From the IMG/VR virus record IMGVR_UViG_2925914267_000002: a stretch of 28,749 bases of DNA. One strand, written 5' to 3'. This document shows positions 1 to 28,749 of this stretch, in pieces (within the stretch, counting starts at the first letter, position 1; every line of letters begins with the position of its first letter). The position numbers were made by a program, and so were the translations under genes. Under the pieces are notes generated by a model. That model was not told where the DNA came from. It did not search any database and was given only the letters and a program-made list of their open reading frames with translations. Origin of the DNA: a virus (taxonomy: Duplodnaviria; Heunggongvirae; Uroviricota; Caudoviricetes).

Positions 1-19
1 CTATTTGATAAATATTAAA

Positions 20-1315
20 TTAATTTTTTATTGCTTCGTTATGGGGCATGGTTGGGGCAAACTCGCTTAACTGTGTATTTAACAAAGCTACCTGTGCATT
101 ATTGTTTTCAGACATCCATTTTCCGTATACCTGAAATACCATTTGCGCATCTGCATGGCCCATCTGGTTTGCTATAAATGCCGGGTTAGCACCAGCTGTC
201 AGCGACCAGCAGGCATAAGTATGTCTCGACTGATATGATTTTCGATGGCGGAGTCCGGCACGTTTTATCGCTGCGTCCCACATCTGCCTTATTGAGTCAA
301 CGGTAAAATGGTCACCATAATTTTTTACTCTCGCTGACACTTCAGGTTGAAAAACAAAGGTGCATTTTTGTTTTTCTGTTCTGCCATACTCTCTGAGGTG
401 AACATCAATGATATGCTCTTTACTCAGTCTCGTTAATGTCATCTGACTCCGGAGAGCGTCGATTGCTGGCTTAATAAGATGAATGACCCGATTGGTTCCC
501 GCCTGTGTTTTTGGTACCGTGAAACGGTCTTTTGCTAAATTTCTCCTGATCATCATTGTTCCATTTTTCAGATCTATGTCCTCCCATCCAAGTGCACACA
601 GCTCACCAGGGCGAACGCCAGTATAAACAGAAACACACCATAAATTTTTTGCTTGCTGATTTCTGCACGCATCGATAAGACGGATAAATTCCTCCCGCGA
701 AAGAGGATCCGGAATGGTTCTTGATTCCTTTAATGGCGAGATCCCCTTAAACGGATTATCTGCCAGGTAACCGTTATCAACACCAAACTGGAACACGGCG
801 TTAAGATTTGTCATGTAATTATTTACAGTTACAGCCGATCTCCCTGGTTGTGTAACAATATAGTTGCTTTTGGGGATCTGGTATCCAGTCAGTAGCTCTT
901 TACGAACCTCCAGTAATTTTTCTTTATTAATCGATGAGGCAAGATTTTTTTCACCGATTATGCTCAGGATATTTTTGATGACGGCACGGTATGTGTTGAG
1001 TGATGTTTTGGCGACTTCATTTTCTTTCAGTGCCAGAAATTTTTCAGCCAGTTCTTTTATGGTTAAATCTTGTCGGGCCTCACCAAATTTTTCCAGATTG
1101 CGTGAGGAGGGAAACTGTTTTGCATAGTCGAAAACACCAGTTTTTATTGCGTAACAAACAGAGGAGCGTAGTTCACCTGCAACGCGCCTGTTTTTTGCTG
1201 TGTCAGGAACCCCCAGATTTTCCCTGACTCTTACGCCTTTATAAACAAACCAGATACGTAATTTCCCTCCATGGTTTTCCACGCCTGTCGGATATTTCAT
1301 TTCAACTTCTCTCAT
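20..1315 (-). CDS. Tyrosine-type phage integrase
   Basis: 431-aa ORF with C-terminal catalytic signature (RHRKSYQSRHTYA, GHADAQMVFQVYGKW). Transcribed toward the window edge and followed by an excisionase-like ORF, the usual int-xis layout at a prophage end. Position corresponds to intQ of K-12 Qin (from memory). Confidence 0.9.
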   Translation of the reverse strand: MREVEMKYPTGVENHGGKLRIWFVYKGVRVRENLGVPDTAKNRRVAGELRSSVCYAIKTGVFDYAKQFPSSRNLEKFGEARQDLTIKELAEKFLALKENEVAKTSLNTYRAVIKNILSIIGEKNLASSINKEKLLEVRKELLTGYQIPKSNYIVTQPGRSAVTVNNYMTNLNAVFQFGVDNGYLADNPFKGISPLKESRTIPDPLSREEFIRLIDACRNQQAKNLWCVSVYTGVRPGELCALGWEDIDLKNGTMMIRRNLAKDRFTVPKTQAGTNRVIHLIKPAIDALRSQMTLTRLSKEHIIDVHLREYGRTEKQKCTFVFQPEVSARVKNYGDHFTVDSIRQMWDAAIKRAGLRHRKSYQSRHTYACWSLTAGANPAFIANQMGHADAQMVFQVYGKWMSENNNAQVALLNTQLSEFAPTMPHNEAIKN

Positions 1316-1334: not shown

Positions 1335-1586
1335 TCAAGTAAGATGACGTCTTGGTCTCGCTGATGCCTGGCGCTCAATCCAGCGATCAATTTCTTCCAG
1401 GTTGTAAAAGCATGGACTGTTATCCCATGGCATACCGTCATGAGCGACATGCTTATATTCCCTTCCTTCCATAAACGATTTTTCCCGGGCCTTTTTTAAC
1501 GTACCTTTTTTTATTCCTTTCAGCGCAATTAACTGCTCTTCGGATACCCATTTGCCGGGAGAGACAATCATGATTACTTCGCTCAT
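1335..1586 (-). CDS. Excisionase-like small protein
   Basis: 83-aa basic ORF immediately upstream of int on the same strand; position and size fit a xis-like directionality factor. Family not verified. Confidence 0.55.
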   Translation of the reverse strand: MSEVIMIVSPGKWVSEEQLIALKGIKKGTLKKAREKSFMEGREYKHVAHDGMPWDNSPCFYNLEEIDRWIERQASARPRRHLT

Positions 1587-1658: not shown

Positions 1659-4130
1659 TTAAGAATCAGCCTGACTCGGGATCAGTTTTTGCCAGATAAC
1701 TGAAACGTATTTTGCCTGGTAACGGGCGTCATCAAGTGCATTATGGCGCTCACCTTCGAATGGAATAGCCGTTCTGGCATCGAAGTCTATGGCTTTCCCC
1801 AGCTCAACGATTGTGCGTACATCGCGATCGTTGTAGTAACGCCACGGGCAGGGGATCCCCTGCCGTTCGTATGAACGGCGCAAAATCGTGTTGTCGAAGT
1901 TGGCTCCATTTCCCCAAACCTGAACAAAAAATTCACCGGAGTTTTCGTCGATAAATTCCCGCAATTGTAACAGTGCATCATCTAACGGGATTTCATCGGT
2001 CATAATGGCAGATTGCGCTTCGCGTGATTGCTTAAGCCACCATTTAATGGTGTCCCGATCAATGACTCCGCCAGCAGTTTCCAGATCGATAGTCTTACTA
2101 AATTCCGGTCCCATATCTCCGGTTTGCGGATCGAAAAATATTGCACCTATTGAGATGATCGGGGCATCAGGATTTTTTCCCATGGTTTCAAGGTCGATCA
2201 TTAGATGGTCACACGTCCTGCTGGTGGATGTGATTTCATGATGACCGTTCACCTTAATTGAGTGATCTGCCGTCTCGCCAGTTTCATTATCGCTATTGTG
2301 ATGCTGATTGCCGCCAGTGTTCTCCTTGTGTGGATGTTCAGCGCCTTCCATTTCCTCCGGATCATCTTCCTGAACTTCAACCTGATACTCTTCATCGAAT
2401 GTTTCCTGGTATGTTGCGTCGCCCATCACCGCGCCACAATCAGGGCAGTTGCCGCCGCCGGTCTGACCGCAGGCGGTGCAGACTTTTTCCACTTCCTGTT
2501 GCGCCACTGGTTCAGGCTGTTTCGTTTCTGGCTCGTTTTGTAACGCATTTGGGCTGTTTTGTTCCGCTTTTTGGTAGTTCCGTTCCGATTCATGCTGGTT
2601 CTGGTTCACAGAATCGCGGGTCTGGATCCCCTTAACCCATTTCGGATCATTCGGGTCACTAATCCCTTCAACAAATTCACCACGTGATGCAGCAAGCAAC
2701 TTATCGGCGTCAGGCTGGCTGATATTGGCTGCCTGCATAATTTTGTTTACTTCGTCAGCGGTAACTTTTATCGGTTCTGGTTGTTCTGAATCTTCAGCGG
2801 TATCTACATTTTGCGGTAAGCCCGTGTATGTGCCATTTTTTCGGGCAAAATATTCTTCTTTTGTGATTTCAGTGGCGCCAGCAGCCAGTGCCTTATCCAG
2901 ACCAGAAAGTTTGTTTGCGCGACCGTATTTTTCTCCGTCCTTATCTGCGAAGAGGAAATAGAACGGCCCCTCACGCTCTACAGATGGTTCAGCTTCCGGC
3001 GCGGTTTCATTTTTTGGGATATCAGATACCTCAGTTTCCACTGCATCAGTTTGTGTTTCTGATGACTGGAGAACATCAACAGTGCCCAGGTCTGTTTCTT
3101 CATTCTCAAACACGCCCTTTGTCGTCAGGTATTCGCAGATATATTTGTTCAGTGCTACGGGATCTTTGTGAATGTCGATCGGACGCTCACGGACAAGGCC
3201 AAAAATAGTTTGGCGGTCGTAGCGAAGGGCATCAGGCTGTTTGCGCATTGATGCCGAGATACGCTTCCAGTCTTCGCGGTCGTTGTCGATAACTTCTTTT
3301 TTTGCCCAGCGATGGATGCTGCCGTCAATGTTTCCGGCATCCACATCACCAGGCCAGAGAGCGTAGGCCAGTTCGTCATCCAGTGTTTTCCATGTCTGCT
3401 TGTATTCGCGATGAATGGCAGCAATGACCGGGCTGATTTTTCCTGTTGAATTTTCAGTGTACTGTTGATTGGCTCTGGTGCGGGCGAGATCAACAACAGA
3501 CGTGTATTTTCCGGTTTCCTTGCGTTCACCTTCGCGACGTTTTTTCCAGATGCGCATCTCTGCCTGAATTTCGGGCCATTTAGCACCAGGAATACATTTA
3601 TGCTTAACCCACCCAATGGCGTGCAACTTAAGCTCCGGAAACATGGCGTTAACTTCTGGCATTTTCATCAACGCTTCAACGATATGTCCGTCGAATGTTG
3701 CCATGTCTTCCTGCAACAATTCCTGTGCGCTAATAACCATATCAACGGTGATGTTTTCACATGTGTCGAACTTAACCATGACAGCGTTCTGTACTTCAGG
3801 GGCCAGCTTGTCAAAAGTGACGTTCATCGGATCGGATTTAGTCTCAACCGGGACAAAAGAAGCAGACTCCTCATCCCAGCGGTTTTCCTGCATATATTCA
3901 GCATCCCATGAATCGAGGGCAGGGCGGGGTATGCCAGGTTTATCCTCGCAGACAATAAATTTATAAGCGCAGTCCTGAGCAGCCGGATAATGTTCCAGGA
4001 ACTGCCAGTGAAATTTTGCTCGAGCACGGCGTTCGTCGCCAGCTTCAATGGCTGTGGCTACAGCCACAGCGCCTTCTTCCCTTGTTGCCAGTTCGTCAGG
4101 AATAGCGGCGCAAATAAAGACTTTACTCAT
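1659..4130 (-). CDS. Large prophage exonuclease with C-terminal DEDDh 3'-5' exonuclease domain (often annotated exodeoxyribonuclease VIII-like)
   Basis: 823-aa ORF. C-terminal motifs HLMIDLETMG (Exo I D-x-E), WGNGANFD (Exo II) and HNALDDARY (Exo III H-x4-D). Central acidic low-complexity linker containing a CxxC-x13-CxxC zinc-ribbon-like motif (CTACGQTGGGNCPDCG). Confidence 0.7.
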   Translation of the reverse strand: MSKVFICAAIPDELATREEGAVAVATAIEAGDERRARAKFHWQFLEHYPAAQDCAYKFIVCEDKPGIPRPALDSWDAEYMQENRWDEESASFVPVETKSDPMNVTFDKLAPEVQNAVMVKFDTCENITVDMVISAQELLQEDMATFDGHIVEALMKMPEVNAMFPELKLHAIGWVKHKCIPGAKWPEIQAEMRIWKKRREGERKETGKYTSVVDLARTRANQQYTENSTGKISPVIAAIHREYKQTWKTLDDELAYALWPGDVDAGNIDGSIHRWAKKEVIDNDREDWKRISASMRKQPDALRYDRQTIFGLVRERPIDIHKDPVALNKYICEYLTTKGVFENEETDLGTVDVLQSSETQTDAVETEVSDIPKNETAPEAEPSVEREGPFYFLFADKDGEKYGRANKLSGLDKALAAGATEITKEEYFARKNGTYTGLPQNVDTAEDSEQPEPIKVTADEVNKIMQAANISQPDADKLLAASRGEFVEGISDPNDPKWVKGIQTRDSVNQNQHESERNYQKAEQNSPNALQNEPETKQPEPVAQQEVEKVCTACGQTGGGNCPDCGAVMGDATYQETFDEEYQVEVQEDDPEEMEGAEHPHKENTGGNQHHNSDNETGETADHSIKVNGHHEITSTSRTCDHLMIDLETMGKNPDAPIISIGAIFFDPQTGDMGPEFSKTIDLETAGGVIDRDTIKWWLKQSREAQSAIMTDEIPLDDALLQLREFIDENSGEFFVQVWGNGANFDNTILRRSYERQGIPCPWRYYNDRDVRTIVELGKAIDFDARTAIPFEGERHNALDDARYQAKYVSVIWQKLIPSQADS

Positions 4131-6036: not shown

Positions 6037-6094
6037 AAAAACGGCGGCAGAGCAGTCACGGAGTAAAACTGATACCGCCAAACGTCACCAGAAA
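6037..6094 (-). ncRNA. dicF: DicF small regulatory RNA, with terminator U-tract
   Basis: Minus-strand sequence TTTCTGGTGACGTTTGGCGGTATCAGTTTTACTCCGTGACTGCTCTGCCGCCGTTTTT matches the DicF sRNA as I recall it. Lies between the ydfA-like genes and dicB as in K-12 Qin; 3' GC-rich stem plus U-run. Confidence 0.75.
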
Positions 6095-10489: not shown

Positions 10490-10816
10490 ATGACTAAAAA
10501 TACTCGTTTTTCCCCCGAAGTCCGTCAGCGGGCGATTCGTATGGTTCTGGAAAGTCAGGATGAATATGACTCACAGTGGGCGGCAATTTGTTCCATTGCC
10601 CCAAAGATTGGCTGTACGCCGGAGACTCTGCGTGTCTGGGTTCGCCAGCATGAGCGGGATACCGGGGGCGGTGATGGTGGGCTCACCAGTGCTGAACGTC
10701 AGCGTCTGAAAGAGCTGGAACGTGAAAATCGTGAACTGCGCCGCAGTAACGATATCCTTCGCCAGGCTTCCGCTTATTTTGCGAAGGCGGAGTTCGACCG
10801 CCTCTGGAAAAAATGA
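10490..10816 (+). CDS. IS629 transposase OrfA
   Basis: 108-aa [26 protein letters not shown]..., typical IS3-family OrfA. Confidence 0.9.
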
Positions 10817-11703
10817 TGCCACTGCTGGATAAGCTGCGTGAGCAGTACGGGGTCGGACCGGTATGCAGCGAACTGCATATTGCCCCGTCAACGTATTACC
10901 ATTGTCAGCAACAGCGACATCATCCGGATAAACGCAGTGCCCGTGCGCAGCACGACGACTGGCTGAAGAGAGAGATACAGCGCGTATACGATGAAAATCA
11001 TCAGGTGTACGGTGTGCGTAAAGTCTGGCGTCAGTTGTTACGGGAAGGAATCAGGGTAGCCAGATGTACAGTGGCGCGCCTCATGGCGGTTATGGGACTT
11101 GCCGGTGTTCTCCGGGGTAAAAAGGTCCGCACTACCGTCAGCCGGAAAGCCGTTGCCGCAGGCGACCGCGTAAACCGTCAGTTTGTGGCAGAACGACCTG
11201 ACCAGCTGTGGGTGGCTGATTTTACTTACGTCAGCACATGGCAGGGCTTCGTCTATGTGGCGTTTATCATTGATGTGTTTGCCGGATACATCGTGGGGTG
11301 GCGGGTCTCATCGTCTATGGAAACGACATTCGTGCTGGATGCGCTGGAGCAGGCGTTGTGGGCCCGTCGTCCGTCTGGCACCATCCATCACAGCGATAAA
11401 GGCTCTCAGTATGTGTCACTGGCCTATACGGAGCGACTAAAAGAAGCCGGATTACTGGCATCAACAGGGAGTACAGGCGACTCGTATGACAACGCGATGG
11501 CTGAGAGCATCAATGGTCTTTACAAAGCGGAGGTAATACACCGTAAGAGCTGGAAAAACCGTGCAGAAGTGGAACTGGCCACACTAACGTGGGTGGACTG
11601 GTATAACAATCGACGATTGCTGGGAAGGCTGGGCCATACTCCTCCGGCAGAAGCAGAAAAAGCTTATTATGCTTCCATCGGAAACGATGATCTGGCAGCC
11701 TGA
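10813..11703 (+). CDS. IS629 transposase OrfB (DDE domain)
   Basis: 296-aa ORF overlapping orfA (ATGA); DDE-type motifs [25 protein letters not shown]. Confidence 0.9.
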
Positions 11704-11745
11704 GTTCACAGATAAAACACTCTCCAGGAAACCCGGGGCGGTTCA

Positions 11746-13185
11746 AATCAACACGTGGCATGCCGTCATAAAATCTCCATTGAAACCGCAAACCATACCC
11801 TTGATGAAAAACTCTTCATGCCCAAACGGGATGAAGGGATGATTGATGAACATATCGCGAAAAAACGCCTCCGAGATTGGATATTTCATTGTGATCTCAT
11901 CTGTAGCAGGAATAATTTGCCCAGCTACTGCCAACTCATGGTCGATACGCATTCTCGTCATCATTATGGGCCAAATAACTGCCCCATTTGCATCATCAAT
12001 CCCCAATCCTGCGGGTATGTGAGCAAGTGTCATTCCCTCATGATCAATATGTGTTGATCCAAACATCCAAGCTATGCTGTTGGCCTTTTGTTCTATTGCT
12101 TGAGCCTTAAGTCTCTCAATGCTGGTTGGCCGACAGACCAGCATCGCAAGTCTGAAAACCATATCAAACAAATCTCTTCCGACTACCCGACTCTTGGCTT
12201 GATGGACAATCTCACTAATATCTTGAGGGGGAGACTGAAGGATAGACATCTGGTGACGGGATTCGATTTGGTAATCACGCATTTCTTCATACAGCGCAAG
12301 ACGTTCTATTCGGGTTCCTGGAATATTAGCCAGTGCTTCAATAGCATTCTGCATGCAGGCTGCCGAAATCATACCGCCATCTTGGAATTTTGACTCTTCC
12401 AGATGTGTATCGGCAAGAAGCCGCCAGAATTCAAACTGTGTATCTCTGTCACAGCACCTATTCGCAATCGGGATTGCGGTTTTACAGGCATCGACGGCAA
12501 ATGAAAATAATTTTTGAGCCAGATAGTTTTTTGTCAGAAACAGGAGTTCCTGGGCAATAAAAGATGGCTCACTCACTTTACAGTCGATATCGAGTTGCAG
12601 GAGTCGCAGCGGATAAGGTGAATCGCCTTGTTCTCTGGTACGTTCATACTCTGCTAGTAGATGTGCCGAAAGCTGATCAAATTCATCCCTGAAATCAGTA
12701 TTCTTTCGAAAAAAACAACACAGCCTAAGCGCACGCTCTAGGCGTTCTAAAGCACTAACCCACGTCCCTTGCGATGTCATAATAGCTATACTGGACGCAT
12801 AATAAGCACGGACTGCCAGCAAAGGAAAACGGATTCCACCAATTTTACGAACCCAAAGTGTATCAGCAATACGAGCTTGAAGTTCGGGTAGCTCTATCGT
12901 CGGGCAAAATTGAGAAAGTACCTCCAGCGACAACCCGTTAATGTCATCCGGAATTGCAGATCTACCTTGGCTGCTTTGAAAGCACGGACCAAATGGTACC
13001 TGTGGATTTTCGGGACGAAAGTGAAAACCGCAAATATGGGTTAGCAGTCTTATCTCCGCTCTTCCATCACCTAGGCTAGAAAGATACTTTGTGATATCAA
13101 AGCAGGTAACTGGCAGCTTACTCTGGATTAAGGGGGATAAATCAATAGTGTTAAGTTCGTCGAGGCTGATATTAATATCGTCCAT
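11746..13185 (-). pseudogene. N-terminal 480 codons of the IS629-disrupted HEPN-motif gene
   Basis: The 480-aa track ORF ends on a stop codon located inside the IS629 right end (11743-11745), so the native reading frame continues beyond the IS. No NTPase motif seen. Confidence 0.6.
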
Positions 13186-13859
13186 GTCGTCACCTTGATG
13201 ATTTGTTAATGCGGGGGCAACATTAATAAATGTACTTGAGACCGCAATTTGTCGATGGAGCCAACATTTATAACTATGTGCTTCTACCCTCTGAATTTTT
13301 ACATGTGAATTGCTAGCTTGAATAGCTCTATCATTATATACGTGGCACTAAATTATGGCTGTTTTTCGCTCAAAGCGGACTAGAAGGTTAGCTTGTGTCG
13401 GACTTTGCGTATTAAAAGAAGTGCTGGTGGTGACTAGTGGTTGTGCCCCATTTCCACAGAAAAAATCAGAGAAACTATACCCAATAGTTGTATTGAATCA
13501 CTGACGAGACAGCCTCATATTCATCAGGACTGGTCTACGTCCAATACAGGAGGTTGTGGTGCTGGTTCTCAAATGTGCGCTGGCTATTACGGCTGTAATG
13601 GCGATTTATTGTCTTGCTATTGTTCTTATGGATCGCCTTTCTGACTGATTTCATATTGGCGAGGTAACGGTAGTTAAGTAGAATGGCTGCGGGTGCTTGA
13701 GGCTATCTGCCTCGGGCATGAACACCAAAGGCAGATAGAGAAAAGCCCCAGTTAACATTACGCGTCCTGCAAGACGCTTAACATTAATCTGAGGCCAATT
13801 TCATGCTAGACACATGTAGGTTAGCCTCTTACGTGCCGAAAGGCAAGGAGAAGCAGGCT

Positions 13860-14015
13860 ATGAAGCAGCAAAAGGCGATGTTAATCGCCCTGATCGTCAT
13901 CTGTTTAACCGTCATAGTGACGGCACTGGTAACGAGGAAAGACCTCTGCGAGGTACGAATCCGAACCGGCCAGACGGAGGTCGCTGTCTTCACAGCTTAC
14001 GAACCTGAGGAGTAA
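13860..14015 (+). CDS. hokD: Hok-family type I toxin (HokD/RelF-like)
   Basis: 51-aa product MKQQKAMLIALIVICLTVIVTALVTRKDLCEVRIRTGQTEVAVFTAYEPEE from ATG 13860 (RBS AAGGAGAA); single TM helix; matches HokD/RelF as I recall it. An in-frame ATG at 13803 extends the frame by 19 codons. Confidence 0.9.
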   Translation: MKQQKAMLIALIVICLTVIVTALVTRKDLCEVRIRTGQTEVAVFTAYEPEE

Positions 14016-17279: not shown

Positions 17280-17579
17280 AAAAATTCCTTAATACTGATA
17301 ACTTGGCGCACTATACACACGTTCCTGAAGAAAGCTATAGTTTTTTGATGGGGTTGAAGATGGCTGGATGTCTAAAATAAACATTGCTTCATATGTTCAA
17401 CTATGCGTTAATGATTGCGTCGGTTTGAAGAACAGACGATATACGAAGTAGTTTACTAAAGCAGTTCTCATTTCAGGTGTTATTCACTTATTCCTTCTTT
17501 GAGTCTCTCCAATTAAGTACGAAGTCGTTTCTGTTATGCAAACCATTTATGCCGAAAGGCTCAAGTTAAGGAATGTAGA

Positions 17580-17795
17580 ATGTCAAATAAAATGACTGGT
17601 TTAGTAAAATGGTTTAACGCTGATAAAGGTTTCGGCTTTATTTCTCCTGTTGATGGTAGTAAAGATGTGTTTGTGCATTTTTCTGCGATTCAGAATGATA
17701 ATTATCGAACCTTATTTGAAGGTCAAAAGGTTACCTTCTCTATAGAGAGTGGTGCTAAAGGTCCTGCAGCAGCAAATGTCATCATTACTGATTAA
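17580..17795 (+). CDS. cspB: Cold-shock protein CspB
   Basis: 71-aa [74 protein letters not shown]; about 300-nt leader region shared divergently with cspF. Confidence 0.9.
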
Positions 17796-18075
17796 AATTC
17801 ATCGCTCGTCTGTATACGATAACGAAGAAGGCTGATGCCTGAGTAGAGATACGGACAGAGTAGTGAATATTGGATCTCTTTAATAAAAAGTAAGGAGGTC
17901 CAATACATGAAACAATGGCTAGCATATTTGGCAAAATCTTAATCAGGAAAAGTATGCTAACCATTGTGGTGAAGTGCAGGTTTGCTGCATGAATAGTTTT
18001 ACAGCAGAAGCTAACTGCTGGCATGGCAAAACAAAGTGCGTAAGTGGATGACTCCCACAAAAAGCACCACAATCT

Positions 18076-18768: not shown

Positions 18769-20102
<1,334 letters not shown>

Positions 20103-20465
20103 GGTAATATTAAATCGGAACATTTACATCGCGGAATGTAAAATTTAAATAAAAAGGACTCTTCCATGAGCCAAAATTCCTGAAATCTTAAGGGTAAGAT
20201 AAAAGGTCTTAATCAGAATGACACGTTTTATTAATAAATAAAGCTATTCTTTCATTGCTGTGTTTTTCTTTACAAAAGTAATCCTTGCTATGGGTGGTTA
20301 ATCATGCGTTAATGGTGTTCTGGTTTGTTACAAATTTATCTGAAGCAGTCATTGTTATAATTTTATTATTTGTACCTCTTGAGATTTCCTTGTTGGTTTT
20401 TCTCTCTGATATTTTTTTTTCGGACCATTCTGCCCAAGGGCTAATTTCTTCAAAAGGTAATAATT

Positions 20466-20678
20466 ATGTCTAACAAAATGACTGGTTTAGTGAAATGGTT
20501 TAACCCTGAAAAAGGTTTTGGTTTCATCACGCCGAAAGATGGCAGCAAAGATGTGTTTGTCCATTTCTCAGCAATTCAGAGCAACGATTTCAAAACATTA
20601 ACTGAGAATCAGGAAGTTGAATTTGGTATTGAGAACGGACCTAAAGGTCCTGCCGCTGTTCATGTAGTGGCGCTTTGA
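20466..20678 (+). CDS. cspI: Cold-shock protein CspI
   Basis: 70-aa [73 protein letters not shown]; long leader (20103-20465). Confidence 0.9.
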
Positions 20679-20711
20679 GGTAGACAATATTACAAACCAT
20701 ATTCACTTTAG

Positions 20712-22807: not shown

Positions 22808-23382
22808 TGGCATTCAGAATGAGTGAACAACCACGGACCATAAAAATTTATAATCTGCTGGCCGGAACTAATGAATTTATTGGTGAAGGTGATGCATATA
22901 TTCCGCCTCATACAGGTCTGCCAGCAAACAGTACCGATATTGCACCGCCAGATATTCCGGCTGGCTTCGTGGCTGTTTTCAACAGTGATGAGTCATCGTG
23001 GCATCTCGTTGAAGATCATCGGGGTAAAACGGTTTATGACGTGGCTTCCGGCGACGCGTTATTTATTTCTGAACTCGGTCCGTTACCGGAAAATGTTACC
23101 TGGTTATCGCCGGAAGGGGAGTTTCAGAAGTGGAACGGCACAGCCTGGGTGAAGGATACGGAAGCAGAAAAACTGTTCCGGATCCGGGAGGCGGAAGAAA
23201 CAAAAAACAACCTGATGCAGGTAGCCAGTGAGCATATTGCGCCGCTTCAGGATGCTGCAGATCTGGAAATCGCAACGGAGGAAGAAATCTCGTTGCTGGA
23301 AGCATGGAAAAAGTATCGGGTATTGCTGAACCGTGTTGATACGTCAACTGCACAGGATATTGAATGGCCAGCACTGCCGTAG
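22807..23382 (+). CDS. tfaQ: Tail fibre assembly protein (Tfa)
   Basis: 191-aa ORF; start overlaps the stf stop (TAATG); Tfa-like sequence and position. Confidence 0.85.
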
Positions 23383-23479
23383 GGTAAAACATATAAATTC
23401 TATAATTAGATGTATCTTTCCATTTACGGCAAGGAAGGGGGCTTGGAAGACGTAAAGCATCTCACACCGAGATTATTTT

Positions 23480-24070
23480 TTATATGTCAGGTGTCTGAAG
23501 TTTTGCTTTGGCTCTTAAAATGGTTTGCCGCGAGGTTTTGAATTCCCGGGCAATGGCACTTATACTTACACCTGACTTAATTCGTTCGAATACCGCCTGT
23601 TTCTGTTCTTCATTTAACACAGGTGGTCGACCAAAACGTTTCCCTGCGCCGCGGGCTCTTACTATCCCGGAATGAGTGCGTTCAAGTAAAAGGTCTCGTT
23701 CAAATTCAGCGACTGCTGAAATTACTTGCATCATCATTTTTCCTGTTGGACTGGTCAGGTCAATGCCCCCCAATGCTAAGCAATGCACTCTGATACCTGT
23801 TTCGGTCAGTTGTTCCACTGTTTTCCTGATATCCATTGCATTACAACCAAGGCGATCCAGTTTTGTCACAATCAATTGATCACCACATTTCAGGCGAGCA
23901 AGCAACCGGTTAAAACCAGGACGCTCACTGGTTGCTGCTGAGCCGCTAATGTGTTCTTCGATTATTTGCTGAGGTTTGATTTTAAAACCTGCACTTTCGA
24001 TTTCCCGGCGTTGATTTTCGGTGGTCTGATCCAGCGTTGATATCCGACAGTAAGCAAAAATTCGAGACAT
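23480..24070 (-). CDS. pinQ: Pin/Gin/Hin-family serine DNA invertase
   Basis: 196-aa ORF with N-terminal catalytic motif YCRISTLDQ (active-site Ser) and C-terminal HTH ([20 protein letters not shown]); adjacent to stf and tfa. Confidence 0.9.
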
Positions 24071-24386
24071 AGTGAGACTCTATACGAAATTGGTGTTCAT
24101 ATCATAATGCATCTCAGAAAATAATTATGATTATTTTTGTGCATATTTGTATGTACACGTTCGAAAATAAACGAATGCGTATGCAACCCCGTAATTTTGG
24201 TGAGACCCAAAATCGATTTTGTGAAAAATGGCTTTAACTCGGTTTGTTTTTCGAGTTCCGGGCGGACTCAAGGAAGAAGAATAGTGTTGCGTGTTATTTT
24301 AACCAGATTTCAAGTTGTTTGGTCGTGGAAAAGTGGAGCAAAATGTTGTTAAAGTGGAAAAATGATAAAAAAGTAAGTTTATTATA

Positions 24387-24539
24387 TTACATTTTACCAT
24401 TTAAATTTTGGTTGTCTTTAAGAACTGATATCGCTGTTTGTAATAATTCTTTGTTATCCAGCCATGATTTTTTCTTTATGTTTCCTTCAATGTAATCAAG
24501 CAATGTTCTGGTATTGATAGGTCTTCCCTGTTTTGCTAC
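24387..24539 (-). pseudogene. ydfK: ydfK (cold-shock-induced small protein), C-terminal 51 codons, separated by IS3
   Basis: Reverse complement reads VAKQGRPINTRTLLDYIEGNIKKKSWLDNKELLQTAISVLKDNQNLNGKM-stop; continues from the N-terminal fragment at 25798-25872 across IS3. Confidence 0.8.
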
Positions 24540-24569
24540 TGATCCTACCCACGTAATATGGACACAGGC

Positions 24570-25436
24570 CTAAGCGAGGTTCTTGTTTTCAAATTGTTCC
24601 GGACTGAGGCCGCCACACCAACTGTGCCGCCGCCACCGATTGTAATCACATTCGATATAATTAAACACCGTTGCCCGCATTATTTCCCGGCTGATAAAGT
24701 GTTCTCCATGGATACATTCCACTTTCAGCGAATGAAAGAAGCTTTCCACGCAGGCATTATCGTAGCAGCAACCTTTTGCGCTCATACTTCCACGCAGATT
24801 ATGCCGCTTCAGTTGCGCCTGATAATCTGCTGAACAGTACTGGCCTCCACGGTCCGTGTGAACGATAACGTTCCGGGGCCTCTTACGCCGCCACAGCGCC
24901 ATCTGCAGGGCATCGCAGGCCAGTTGCGCCGTCATGCGTGGCGACATTGACCAGCCAATAACGGCACGTGACCACAGGTCAATGACCACTGCCAGATACA
25001 GCCAGCCTTCATCTGTACGTAAGTACGTGATGTCTCCTGCCCACTTCTGGTTCGGGCCACTGGCGTAAAAATCCTGCTCCAACAGATTTTCTGACACAGG
25101 CAGGCCGTGTGCGCGGTAGCTGACCGGGCTGAACTTCCGGGAGGCCTTTGCCCTCAGTCCCTGACGGCGCAGGCTTGCCGCCACGGTTTTTACGTTAAAG
25201 GGGTAACCCTGAGCACGCAGTTCATCCGTCAGGCGTGGGGCACCGTAACGCTGTTTTGACCGGGTAAAAGCCGCGAGGACAACGCTGTCGCAGTGTTGGC
25301 GGAACTGCTGACGCGTGCTTATCCTTGTCCGCCGCTGACACCACGTATACCAGCCGCTGCGGGCCACCCGGAGCACGCGGCACATTGCTTTGATGCTGAA
25401 CTCAGCCTGATGTTTTTCAATAAAGACATACTTCAT
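24570..25436 (-). CDS. insF: IS3 transposase OrfB (InsF)
   Basis: 288-aa DDE-domain ORF overlapping orfA. Confidence 0.95.
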
Positions 25437-25741
25437 TTCAGGCGCTTCGCGAAGTATGTCGCGGCCTTTTGGAGGATAGCCAGCTCTTCATCCCGTTCTG
25501 CCAGCTGGCGTTTGAGACGTGCAATCTCGGTAGACATCTCCAGTTCACGTTCAGAAGACGTCTGCTGATTTTGCTGTTTACTGCGCCAGTTGTAGAGTTG
25601 TGATTCATACAGGCTGAGTTCACGGGCTGCGGCAGTAACACCGATGCGTTCAGCAAGCTTCAGGGCTTCACTGCGAAATTCAGGCGAATGCTGTTTACGG
25701 GGTTTTTTACTGGTTGATACTGTTTTTGTCATGTGAGTCAC
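25433..25741 (-). CDS. insE: IS3 transposase OrfA (InsE)
   Basis: 102-aa [38 protein letters not shown]... Confidence 0.95.
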
Positions 25742-25797
25742 CTCTGACTGAGAGTTTACTCACTTAGCCGCGTGTCCACTATTGCTGGGTAAGATCA

Positions 25798-25872
25798 TAC
25801 AGCATCCCCTAGGATAATTCTTACTTCAGGAAGCTGCGCAGGGAACCACTTTAGGGTGTCTTTTGATTTCAT
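25798..25872 (-). pseudogene. ydfK: ydfK N-terminal 25 codons, with start codon
   Basis: Reverse complement reads ATG AAA TCA AAA GAC ACC ... = MKSKDTLKWFPAQLPEVRIILGDAV, ending at the IS3 target repeat. Confidence 0.8.
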
Positions 25873-26658
25873 GAAGATATTCCTTAAAATATTATTGATT
25901 TTCATTGCGATATTGTATGTCTGATTCAGGATATGTTGACTTATACATCGGTTTTGTCTGGGTTATTGGATATGCCAATCCCTAATTTTATTAGGGCATG
26001 ACTAAAAATGCTGAATATGATAAGGAGAGATGTGATTATCAGTATGCTGTTCATATAGCCTCGAATTAGTAATGTGTTATATATGATATAGTTGACAATT
26101 TTTATCTTGGGTGTTCTTAAAGTTCGTAGATAAACATTGTCGTTTCAGGTATACAGGAATGCTAACAGGTGGCAGCAAAAATCAGGCGGTTTATGGCGCA
26201 AGCTGAAGCGGCAACTGCAAACTATCTTATGCAGAGACTCTACACGGATTGGGTTTAAAAGTATACATAGATAACAGTTTTTATCTGAAAAAGAAAAATA
26301 TCAAGGTGATATAGCCTATATGCCTTTGATGCGGAGGAATGAATGTGATGGGAGTGATGTATCTGAATAGTTGAAAAACCGCAGACACGCCTTATGCAAG
26401 AACGTGCTGCGGTTGGCTGGTAAATTTTTCGATAGTGTGAGTATTGAATGATTTCCAGCCGTTCTTGATTTTACGCATAAATCCATGAAAAAACTACTTA
26501 TCTGTTGGGGAGTTTTTTTTGGGGCATATATGGGACAGAAATAGGCCCCAGATAGACACTGAGATCGAACTTAGGATGCTTTTTAAAAAATGCAACTATC
26601 TGAAAAAACCTAGAAAACGCCAAGGAAACCACAGGATGGGAAAAAACACCTGTGAATT

Positions 26659-27942
26659 ATGGATTTCCAGTTATATTCGCTCGGCGCAGCGTTAGTGTTT
26701 CATGAAATATTTTTTCCTGAATCATCAACGGCAATGGCGTTAATTCTGGCAATGGGAACCTACGGTGCAGGTTATGTGGCGCGTATTGTCGGAGCATTTA
26801 TTTTCGGCAAAATGGGCGACAGAATAGGGCGTAAAAAAGTGCTCTTTATTACCATCACCATGATGGGGATCTGTACCACCTTAATTGGTGTGTTACCGAC
26901 CTATGCACAGATTGGTGTTTTTGCACCCATCTTGCTGGTGACGTTGCGTATTATTCAGGGGTTGGGTGCAGGTGCGGAAATTTCCGGTGCCGGTACGATG
27001 CTGGCGGAATATGCGCCAAAAGGTAAGCGCGGAATTATCTCCTCATTTGTGGCTATGGGAACTAACTGCGGAACCTTGAGCGCAACGGCAATCTGGGCCT
27101 TTATGTTCTTCATTCTCAGTAAAGAGGAACTGCTGGCGTGGGGATGGCGTATACCGTTCCTGGCGAGCGTTGTCGTGATGGTCTTTGCTATCTGGTTGCG
27201 TATGAATCTGAAAGAAAGCCCGGTCTTTGAGAAGGTTAACGACAGTAACCAACCGACAGCAAAACCTGCACCTGCTGGTAGCATGTTCCAGAGCAAATCC
27301 TTCTGGCTGGCAACAGGGCTGCGTTTTGGTCAGGCGGGTAACTCCGGGTTAATTCAGACTTTCCTTGCAGGCTATTTAGTGCAGACGTTATTGTTTAACA
27401 AAGCAATTCCAACAGATGCATTGATGATCAGTTCGATTCTCGGCTTTATGACCATTCCGTTCCTTGGTTGGTTATCCGATAAAATTGGTCGCCGGATCCC
27501 GTATATTATTATGAATACCTCCGCGATTGTGCTGGCATGGCCAATGCTTTCTATCATTGTAGATAAAAGCTATGCCCCGAGCACCATTATGGTTGCACTG
27601 ATTGTGATTCATAACTGTGCGGTGCTGGGATTATTTGCTCTGGAAAACATTACCATGGCAGAAATGTTCGGCTGTAAAAACCGCTTTACCCGGATGGCTA
27701 TTTCTAAAGAAATTGGTGGTCTTATCGCTTCCGGTTTTGGTCCTATCCTGGCGGGTATTTTCTGCACCATGACGGAATCCTGGTATCCGATCGCCATTAT
27801 GATCATGGCATATTCAGTGATTGGTTTAATCTCTGCGCTGAAAATGCCAGAGGTGAAAGACCGTGATTTAAGTGCGCTGGAAGACGCTGCGGAAGATCAA
27901 CCGCGTGTTGTAAGAGCTGCGCAACCTTCCAGAAGTCTGTAA
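26659..27942 (+). CDS. ydfJ: MFS transporter (metabolite:H+ symporter family), YdfJ-like, apparently N-terminally truncated at the prophage junction
   Basis: 427-aa ORF with MFS motifs (GDRIGRKK after TM2, multiple TM segments) but starting inside the first TM helix (MDFQLYSLGAALVF...). No RBS before the ATG and an in-frame TGA two codons upstream. Confidence 0.8.
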   Translation: MDFQLYSLGAALVFHEIFFPESSTAMALILAMGTYGAGYVARIVGAFIFGKMGDRIGRKKVLFITITMMGICTTLIGVLPTYAQIGVFAPILLVTLRIIQGLGAGAEISGAGTMLAEYAPKGKRGIISSFVAMGTNCGTLSATAIWAFMFFILSKEELLAWGWRIPFLASVVVMVFAIWLRMNLKESPVFEKVNDSNQPTAKPAPAGSMFQSKSFWLATGLRFGQAGNSGLIQTFLAGYLVQTLLFNKAIPTDALMISSILGFMTIPFLGWLSDKIGRRIPYIIMNTSAIVLAWPMLSIIVDKSYAPSTIMVALIVIHNCAVLGLFALENITMAEMFGCKNRFTRMAISKEIGGLIASGFGPILAGIFCTMTESWYPIAIMIMAYSVIGLISALKMPEVKDRDLSALEDAAEDQPRVVRAAQPSRSL

Positions 27943-27951
27943 ACCCTTAAT

Positions 27952-27982
27952 CCCTTCTCTTACCGGAGAGGGGATTTTTATT
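27952..27982 (+). terminator. Rho-independent terminator after the ydfJ-like gene
   Basis: CCCTTCTC-TTACCG-GAGAGGGG hairpin (one G-U pair) followed by ATTTTTATT. Confidence 0.55.
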
Positions 27983-28051
27983 CATATAACAAAACAGGTG
28001 ATGCTGCCAACTTACTGATTTAGTGTATGATGGTGTTTTTGAGGTGCTCCA

Positions 28052-28327
28052 GTGGCTTCTGTTTCTATCAGCTGTCCCTCCTGTTCAGCTACTGACGGGG
28101 TGGTGCGTAACGGCAAAAGCACCGCCGGACATCAGCGCTATCTCTGCTCTCACTGCCGTAAAACATGGCAACTGCAGTTCACTTACACCGCTTCTCAACC
28201 CGGTACGCACCAGAAAATCATTGATATGGCCATGAATGGCGTTGGATGCCGGGCAACTGCCCGCATTATGGGCGTTGGCCTCAACACGATTTTACGTCAC
28301 TTAAAAAACTCAGGCCGCAGTCGGTAA
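28052..28327 (+). CDS. insA: IS1 InsA
   Basis: 91 aa, identical in protein sequence to the insA of the first IS1 copy. Confidence 0.95.
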
Positions 28328-28749
28328 CCTCGCGCATACAGCCGGGCAGTGACGTCATCGTCTGCGCGGAAATGGACGAACAGTGGGGATACGTCGGGGC
28401 TAAATCGCGCCAGCGCTGGCTGTTTTACGCGTATGACAGGCTCCGGAAGACGGTTGTTGCGCACGTATTCGGTGAACGCACTCTGGCCACACTGGAGCGT
28501 CTTCTGAGCCTGCTGTCGGCCTTTGAGGTCGTGGTATGGATGACGGATGGCTGGCCGCTGTATGAATCACGCCTGAAGGGAAAGCTGCACGTTATCAGCA
28601 AGCGTTACACTCAGCGCATTGAGCGACATAATCTGAATCTGAGACAACATCTGGCAAGGCTGGGACGGAAGTCGCTGTCGTTCTCAAAATCGGTGGAGCT
28701 GCATGACAAAGTCATCGGGCATTATCTGAACATAAAACACTATCAATAA
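28246..28749 (+). CDS. insB: IS1 InsB (variant isoform)
   Basis: 167 aa; differs from the first copy at several clustered positions ([20 protein letters not shown] vs [20 protein letters not shown]). Confidence 0.95.

Follow-up and report, generated by a model that had tools for sequence, protein, structure and literature searches.

Phage lambda has a tyrosine integrase (Int) with an arm-binding domain, an excisionase (Xis) and a short core identical between its attachment (att) sites; its int gene adjoins the P' arm, and its prophage ends are attL (BOP') and attR (POB'). We analyzed a window of 28,749 nucleotides, by which we mean the whole stretch of DNA in the IMG/VR virus record IMGVR_UViG_2925914267_000002, where an open reading frame (ORF) of the gene ydfJ lies directly against phage DNA. 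In our reading, with a probability of roughly 96%, positions 25873-26700 form the attR, or right end, of a Qin/mEp460-type lambdoid prophage that is defective and sits in an Escherichia ydfJ. The integrase, the excisionase, the core and the position of int beside the P' arm are arranged in this element as in lambda. Differences from lambda concern the sequence of the core, the motif of the arm-type sites (candidate TGGGGCA here) and the arm-binding family (PF12167 here); in addition, lambda attB lies between gal and bio, whereas the ydfJ attB is within a coding sequence.

Insertion at this site has been reported before. According to a 2019 paper (PMC6379469), the K-12 prophage Qin enters the 5' end of ydfJ by site-specific integration, and the gene thereby loses its promoter and 28 codons; comparative-genome papers also give ydfJ as the Qin site. 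In the MG1655 annotation, the 'cryptic prophage Qin' (1632277..1652745) is bordered directly by a 427-aa ydfJ (b1543) and, on the other side, by ynfP (b4534). The junction in the window is real, very common and already described, and thus ordinary. It shares with MG1655 Qin the same attB, 11-bp core, attR sequence and 427-aa ydfJ remnant, together with the cargo genes ynfT, ydfK, pinQ and tfaQ and a DicF/dicB/relBE-hokD-type content. On the other hand, the int (426 aa), xis and 823-aa exonuclease genes are intact in the window, while intQ and ydfE of K-12 are IS2-interrupted pseudogenes, and the insertion sequences (IS) are others: an IS3 splits ydfK, an IS1 closely follows ydfJ, and IS1 and IS3-family copies lie inside the element. 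Site-specific integration inside E. coli protein-coding genes is also found for e14 and phage 21 (icd) and for Rac (ttcA). However, e14 and phage 21 bring a substitute gene end that keeps the icd protein complete, and Rac gives ttcA an alternative N-terminus (PMC6379469). At ydfJ the phage side gives a stop codon instead, and YdfJ loses 28 residues.

The junction consists of the following features:
26379..26656, + strand: non-coding DNA at the right prophage end, common to otherwise different prophages at this site, taken as the P arm of attP
26653..26655, + strand: phage-derived TGA stop, ending the reading frame two codons 5' of Met29, with the same bases in the mEp460 attP
26657..26667, no strand: 11-bp core (O) of attR, TTATGGATTTC, the same in all four att sites (attP, attB, attL, attR)
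26659..27942, + strand: ydfJ', the 3' 427 codons (29-455) of an MHS-family MFS transporter gene, severed from codons 1-28 and from rspAB

Strain CRE1493 has an intact YdfJ of 455 aa, and its residues 29-455 are matched in 427 of 427 positions by the product of ydfJ', which begins MDFQLYSLGAALVF. This genome is prophage-free at the site, with the gene order rspA-rspB-ydfJ-ydfI and rspB directly before ydfJ. An alignment with a prophage-free ydfJ had been suggested in the initial annotation of this DNA, which was made from the sequence alone, and it exposes a hybrid junction: the window is identical to the CRE1493 gene from 26657 rightwards and unrelated to it leftwards, with the break at 26656/26657. 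The ATG of ydfJ' (26659-26661) is the native codon Met29, preceded in frame by ATT and by the TGA at 26653-26655, just where the initial annotation had placed a stop. That annotation had also put the att core a few tens of bp upstream of 26659, and here it has to be corrected, since the core straddles the start and holds the ATG. RefSeq tags the same ORF as 'incomplete; missing N-terminus' and calls it a pseudogene.

To define the att sites, the window (attR) was aligned with CRE1493 (attB), with TUM18781 and a K-12 derivative (attL), and with phage mEp460 (attP):
attP: left flank cacctgtgaa, core TTATGGATTTC, right flank aagagtcat
attB: left flank gcgcttgaat, core TTATGGATTTC, right flank cagttatat
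attL: B side on the left, core, P' side on the right
attR (window): P side on the left, core, B' side on the right

The attR of the window is a hybrid, in which the left half comes from attP and the right half from attB, and the attL of the other two genomes is the reciprocal product. The left 40+ nt of this attR are those of the mEp460 attP and its right side is that of the CRE1493 attB; over the 600 nt to the left of the core, the identity with mEp460 is 99.8%. This four-way comparison shows that a prophage integrated in the 5' end of the gene, as had been proposed earlier. We also assembled a predicted attP of 606 nt from the phage sequence at the right end of the window, the core, 18 nt taken from the attL genomes and window positions 1-300. 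Four phages, mEp460_ev081, HannyBb, Tritos and PhiR42_1, have it in their genomes as one uninterrupted stretch, at 98.2-99.7% identity. These phages (mEp460 being LR597641.1) have the P arm, TTATGGATTTC and the P' arm in one piece, int and xis at 98-99.7% identity and the same gene order as mEp460, tfa-pin-ydfK-attP-int-xis-exo. They are, however, complete phages of 45-49 kb, while the element in the window is IS-ridden and has no head or tail morphogenesis genes. An explicit 11-bp core, checked against the attP of free phages, is a mild addition to the known finding.

Parts of the reconstructed attP and of the 3' end of int are also matched by about 15 genomes of Stx2a-converting phages, at ~90% identity over 65% of the query and in two pieces. 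Shiga-toxin phages may thus carry a related integration module as well.

The other end of the element lies at the left end of the window:
1..70, no strand: P' arm of attP at the left prophage end; 18 nt separate the attL core from window position 1
20..1300, - strand: tyrosine integrase of 426 aa from MKYPTG, in an ORF reaching 1315, with PF12167 Arm-DNA-bind_2 (1.6e-23) and PF00589 Phage_integrase (3.9e-18)
1335..1586, - strand: excisionase of 83 aa, with PF06806 putative excisionase (1.6e-31), annotated xisR/excisionase

The integrase gene is apparently full length, and its ORF is labelled site-specific integrase in the matching genomes. Because tyrosine integrase and excisionase domains are encoded beside the att site, integration probably works as with lambda Int. 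We suggest that the integrase recombined attP with attB through the 11-bp core, the attB being placed within ydfJ codons 28-31. One product would be an attL with rspB, ydfJ codons 1-28, the core and then the P' arm and int; the other is the attR with the P arm, the core and then ydfJ codons 29-455. The phage side brings no replacement N-terminus, and the ORF starts at the native Met29 that happens to be in the core. In this way ydfJ' has lost the N-terminal half of transmembrane (TM) helix 1, its own translation start and the upstream co-directional rspA-rspB.

In TUM18781 and the K-12 derivative, the sequence to the left of window position 1 consists of rspB, 57 nt, ydfJ codons 1-28, TTATGGATTTC, the 18 nt AAGAGTCATGCGTGTTAA and then window base 1. 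The severed 5' part of ydfJ (2890-3000 of the TUM18781 locus, and likewise in the K-12 derivative) runs into phage DNA for five codons (KSHAC) up to a TAA, which ends exactly one base before the window start. The peptide translated from attL is the same as that of ynfP, MTIEKHERSTKDLVKAAVSGWLGTALEFMDFKSHAC, with 36 aa: YdfJ residues 1-31 plus the five phage-encoded codons. The window begins 18 nt within the prophage, and the attL of its own genome is expected just beyond it, reading ...GCGCTTGAATTTATGGATTTCAAGAGTCATGCGTGTTAA after ydfJ codons 1-28 and rspB. The initial annotation had predicted the other half of the gene past int, beyond the left end; this is the case in every related genome examined, while the left flank of this genome itself is outside the window.

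The consequences for the protein were evaluated on an AlphaFold2 model of full-length YdfJ built with 121 diverse MHS homologues (pLDDT 93.7, pTM 0.91). A first model, from a shallow alignment of 83-100% identical sequences, was discarded (pLDDT 37.7). The retained model has a canonical MFS fold (TM-score 0.77 to XylE), in which helix 1 comprises residues 10-46; Met29 is in the middle of it, and the truncation takes 19 of its 37 residues. Every one of 116 distant MHS homologues has residues from position 13 on, with G23 conserved in 115 and E27 in 113 of them, and both are lost from ydfJ'. Position 29 is mostly Tyr in these homologues, Met29 being peculiar to YdfJ. Thus, the claims that the ORF starts in the middle of TM1 and lacks a conserved N-terminal segment, both made before any comparison, hold. 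A PDB sequence search with full-length YdfJ gave nothing at E<=1e-5, and in Kyte-Doolittle hydropathy TM1 was not clearly delimited (~1.0 over residues 13-60). By profile, ydfJ' still belongs to the MHS family, with 453.5 bits for TIGR00883, above the curated cutoff of 443.45, compared with 462.9 bits for full-length YdfJ. The match, however, begins at profile position 7 and not 1, and that of the ShiA model at position 37 and not 12. A complete 12-TM MFS core with the whole TM1 and the conserved G..xE.xDF motif is not found in ydfJ'.

Regarding expression, the insertion parts ydfJ' from the co-directional rspAB by about 26.7 kb, and its phage neighbors, ynfT and ydfK, are transcribed away from it on the other strand. 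A promoter and terminator scan of 25750-26800 gave counts not above those of shuffled sequence, and no phage promoter into ydfJ' can be claimed. The initial annotation had noted the absence of a ribosome-binding site. Taken literally, this is true, with an anti-Shine-Dalgarno pairing energy of -3.3 kcal/mol at Met29 against a mean of -2.3 for random 18-mers of the window, but it has no discriminating value, since the authentic ydfJ start is equally weak (-2.9). We dropped this argument because the energy fails to separate the truncated start from the authentic one. A literature search on a physiological role linking ydfJ, rspA and gulonate returned nothing usable.

From the protein and its surroundings, we infer that function and expression were lost and that ydfJ' is most likely a silent or non-functional remnant. 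Some points weigh against our interpretation. The remnant shows no decay, with 100% identity to the intact allele, and a loss of function does not follow from its sequence; the weak ribosome-binding site does not discriminate; an RNA-seq study lists ydfJ among the genes with RNA change on DicC induction, which indicates some transcript in K-12; and the attL of this very genome cannot be read in the window. As an alternative, ydfJ' could still be expressed from Met29 and give a transporter that is functional, or neo-functional, in spite of its shorter TM1. The intact ORF with its wild-type sequence, the TIGR00883 score, the RNA changes in K-12 and a native start no better in Shine-Dalgarno pairing can be cited for this. 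We consider such activity highly improbable given the loss of half of helix 1 with the nearly invariant G23 and E27, the lack of promoter-like sites above chance facing the ORF, the opposite orientation of the adjacent ynfT and ydfK, and the pseudogene call in RefSeq.

The distribution of the junction was determined with three 200-nt probes against 5426 complete E. coli genomes, counting only those where the probe was fully covered:
intact attB probe: 2009 of 5426 genomes
attR junction probe (that of this window): 3169 of 5426 genomes
attL junction probe: 2710 of 5426 genomes

The site is occupied in roughly 60% of the genomes, being a major integration hotspot, and the recurrence of the same breakpoint in thousands of genomes indicates that it is not a chance pattern. 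Outside E. coli, full-length orthologues starting at this Met, which the initial annotation had named as evidence that would speak against it, were looked for and did not appear: those of Enterobacter, Citrobacter, Lelliottia and Pantoea have 455-458 aa with a conserved N-terminus. A 427-aa YdfJ does exist in Enterobacter kobei (loci L007-L010, junction ~4000), but prophage genes (tailspike, gtrABC, UmuD-like) lie before it, and the junction is at the same ydfJ codon (...cacctttaaatc|ATGGATTTCCAG), with a related phage-side core flank (cacctNtNaatN-ATGGATTTC). Since prophage genes lie upstream and the junction is at the same codon, we rejected these forms as natural short orthologues. The presence of different Enterobacter prophages at this codon shows that the attB is used across genera.

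These data also bear on the possibility that nothing is missing from the 427-aa ORF, the gene being naturally of this length, with ordinary host intergenic DNA upstream and with mis-annotated starts in the longer forms. A product of this length is predicted from thousands of assemblies (3723 members in cluster P0001), and MG1655 b1543 is a 427-aa coding sequence. Nevertheless, the chance that this is correct is close to nil: prophage-free strains, as in the CRE1493 locus, carry 28 more codons right after rspB, the orthologues of four other genera and the 116 distant homologues (all of them covering positions 13-28, within helix 1 at 10-46) have the missing segment, and the 600 nt upstream are those of mEp460. 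We regard it as refuted. A truncation by IS-mediated deletion or rearrangement, which the IS3 and IS1 flanking the junction and the further IS copies inside the prophage could suggest, is about as implausible, because no IS end is at the breakpoint, which matches to the base the 11-bp core of a contiguous attP and an intact attB, and because the identical junction is present in 3169 genomes, most of them without these IS copies.

Returning to site-specific integration, the phage arms contain possible Int sites. Prophages with different tail or tail-fibre modules have matches to the window that start at 26379 or 26393, and for this reason we assign 26379-26656, the ~275 bp adjoining the core, to the P arm. 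A motif scan revealed the following:
26520..26550, + strand: candidate Int arm-type sites of the P arm, a tandem TGGGGCATATA / TGGGACAGAAA with an 11-bp period at 26520-26541
41-62, no strand: candidate arm sites of the P' arm, a tandem ATGGGGCATGG / TTGGGGCAAAC overlapping the 3' end of int

In the P arm, 137 bp lie between the TGGGGCA tandem and the core, and an inverted GGCCCCA is beside the tandem at 26544-26550. The Enterobacter prophages have the same tandem, TGGGGCATATATGGGGCAAAAA (3862-3883 in L007-L010), at the same distance of ~137 bp from the core, in a P arm otherwise unrelated. We suggest that the tandem motifs of both arms are candidate Int arm-type binding sites.

The integration module could also act as a reversible genetic switch, where excision by Int and Xis would precisely rebuild the 455-codon ydfJ and rejoin ydfJ-ydfI to rspAB. 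Of such a switch only prerequisites are seen: int and xis are intact, and the attR core is perfect, while the morphogenesis genes have been lost. This role seems improbable to us. If it were true, a sugar-acid uptake and catabolism cluster would be turned on in a subpopulation, and the tandem TGGGGCA arm sites, common to unrelated Enterobacter prophages, would be its control points.

The significance of the locus goes little beyond correct annotation. The 427-aa 'YdfJ' of thousands of assemblies is a prophage-truncated remnant, for which pseudogene or split gene would be the right label, and the 36-aa 'YnfP' should be annotated as its N-terminal fragment with five codons of phage origin attached. 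For automatic prophage delimiting, and for curing or engineering the locus, the precise core (TTATGGATTTC) and the candidate arm sites are handy. Relative to the known Qin site, the mild additions are the explicit core, the use of the site across genera, the candidate arm sites, and an int and xis that are intact, unlike those of K-12 Qin.

Around the junction, the window contains additional features:
24540-25797: IS3 of 1258 bp, with the target site duplication TAC at 24537-24539 and 25798-25800, splitting ydfK
25798..25872, - strand: 5' 75 nt of ydfK, a prophage cold-shock gene, with ATG at 25872-25870, colinear with the ydfK of CT01
25941..26054, - strand: ynfT, a 37-aa YnaM/YnfT small protein (PF23676 YnaM, 6.5e-28), annotated ynfT in CT01 and MG1655
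27997-28749: IS1, beginning GGTGATGCTGCC..., 55 nt past the ydfJ stop and running off the window end

The remainder of ydfK is left of 24540, and position 25873 immediately adjoins the ydfK ATG. The IS1 sits just beyond a terminator-like hairpin, where ydfI should begin, so that ydfJ' is also severed from this downstream partner. No colinear match to 23400-28749, with the IS3 in ydfK and the IS1 after ydfJ, was found among the complete E. coli genomes searched, and the best match with full coverage is in 4 pieces over 8.5 kb.

A permissive Rfam search of 25798-26700 returned only a sub-threshold CssrB match and a spurious miRNA match, and we claim no RNA gene there. CssrB is a chromosome-encoded small RNA of Shigella; the match (26274-26411, + strand) scores 25.3 bits (E=0.007), where the gathering score is 76, and lies in the non-coding stretch from ynfT to the P arm. 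Elsewhere in the window, five regions have Rfam matches above the gathering score, all typical of Qin:
6042-6093, - strand
13691-13865, + strand
17419-17811, + strand
20319-20705, + strand
23150-23348, + strand

The RNAs in these regions are the DicF small RNA, the sok antitoxin RNA of hok/sok, two cspA-type thermoregulator leaders and IS009. An ALIL frameshift pseudoknot (10771-10887) was found within the IS3-family element at 10490-11703. Adjoining this element is a 479-aa ORF (11743-13185, - strand) with a match to DUF7380 only; the K-12 Qin annotation has no gene of this size at the corresponding place, and the ORF may be cargo. Finally, a single 341-aa ORF (19077-20102, + strand) contains both phage lysozyme and DUF2514 (Rz-like) domains, while K-12 Qin has separate rrrQ and rzpQ genes, which looks like the result of a fusion or frameshift.

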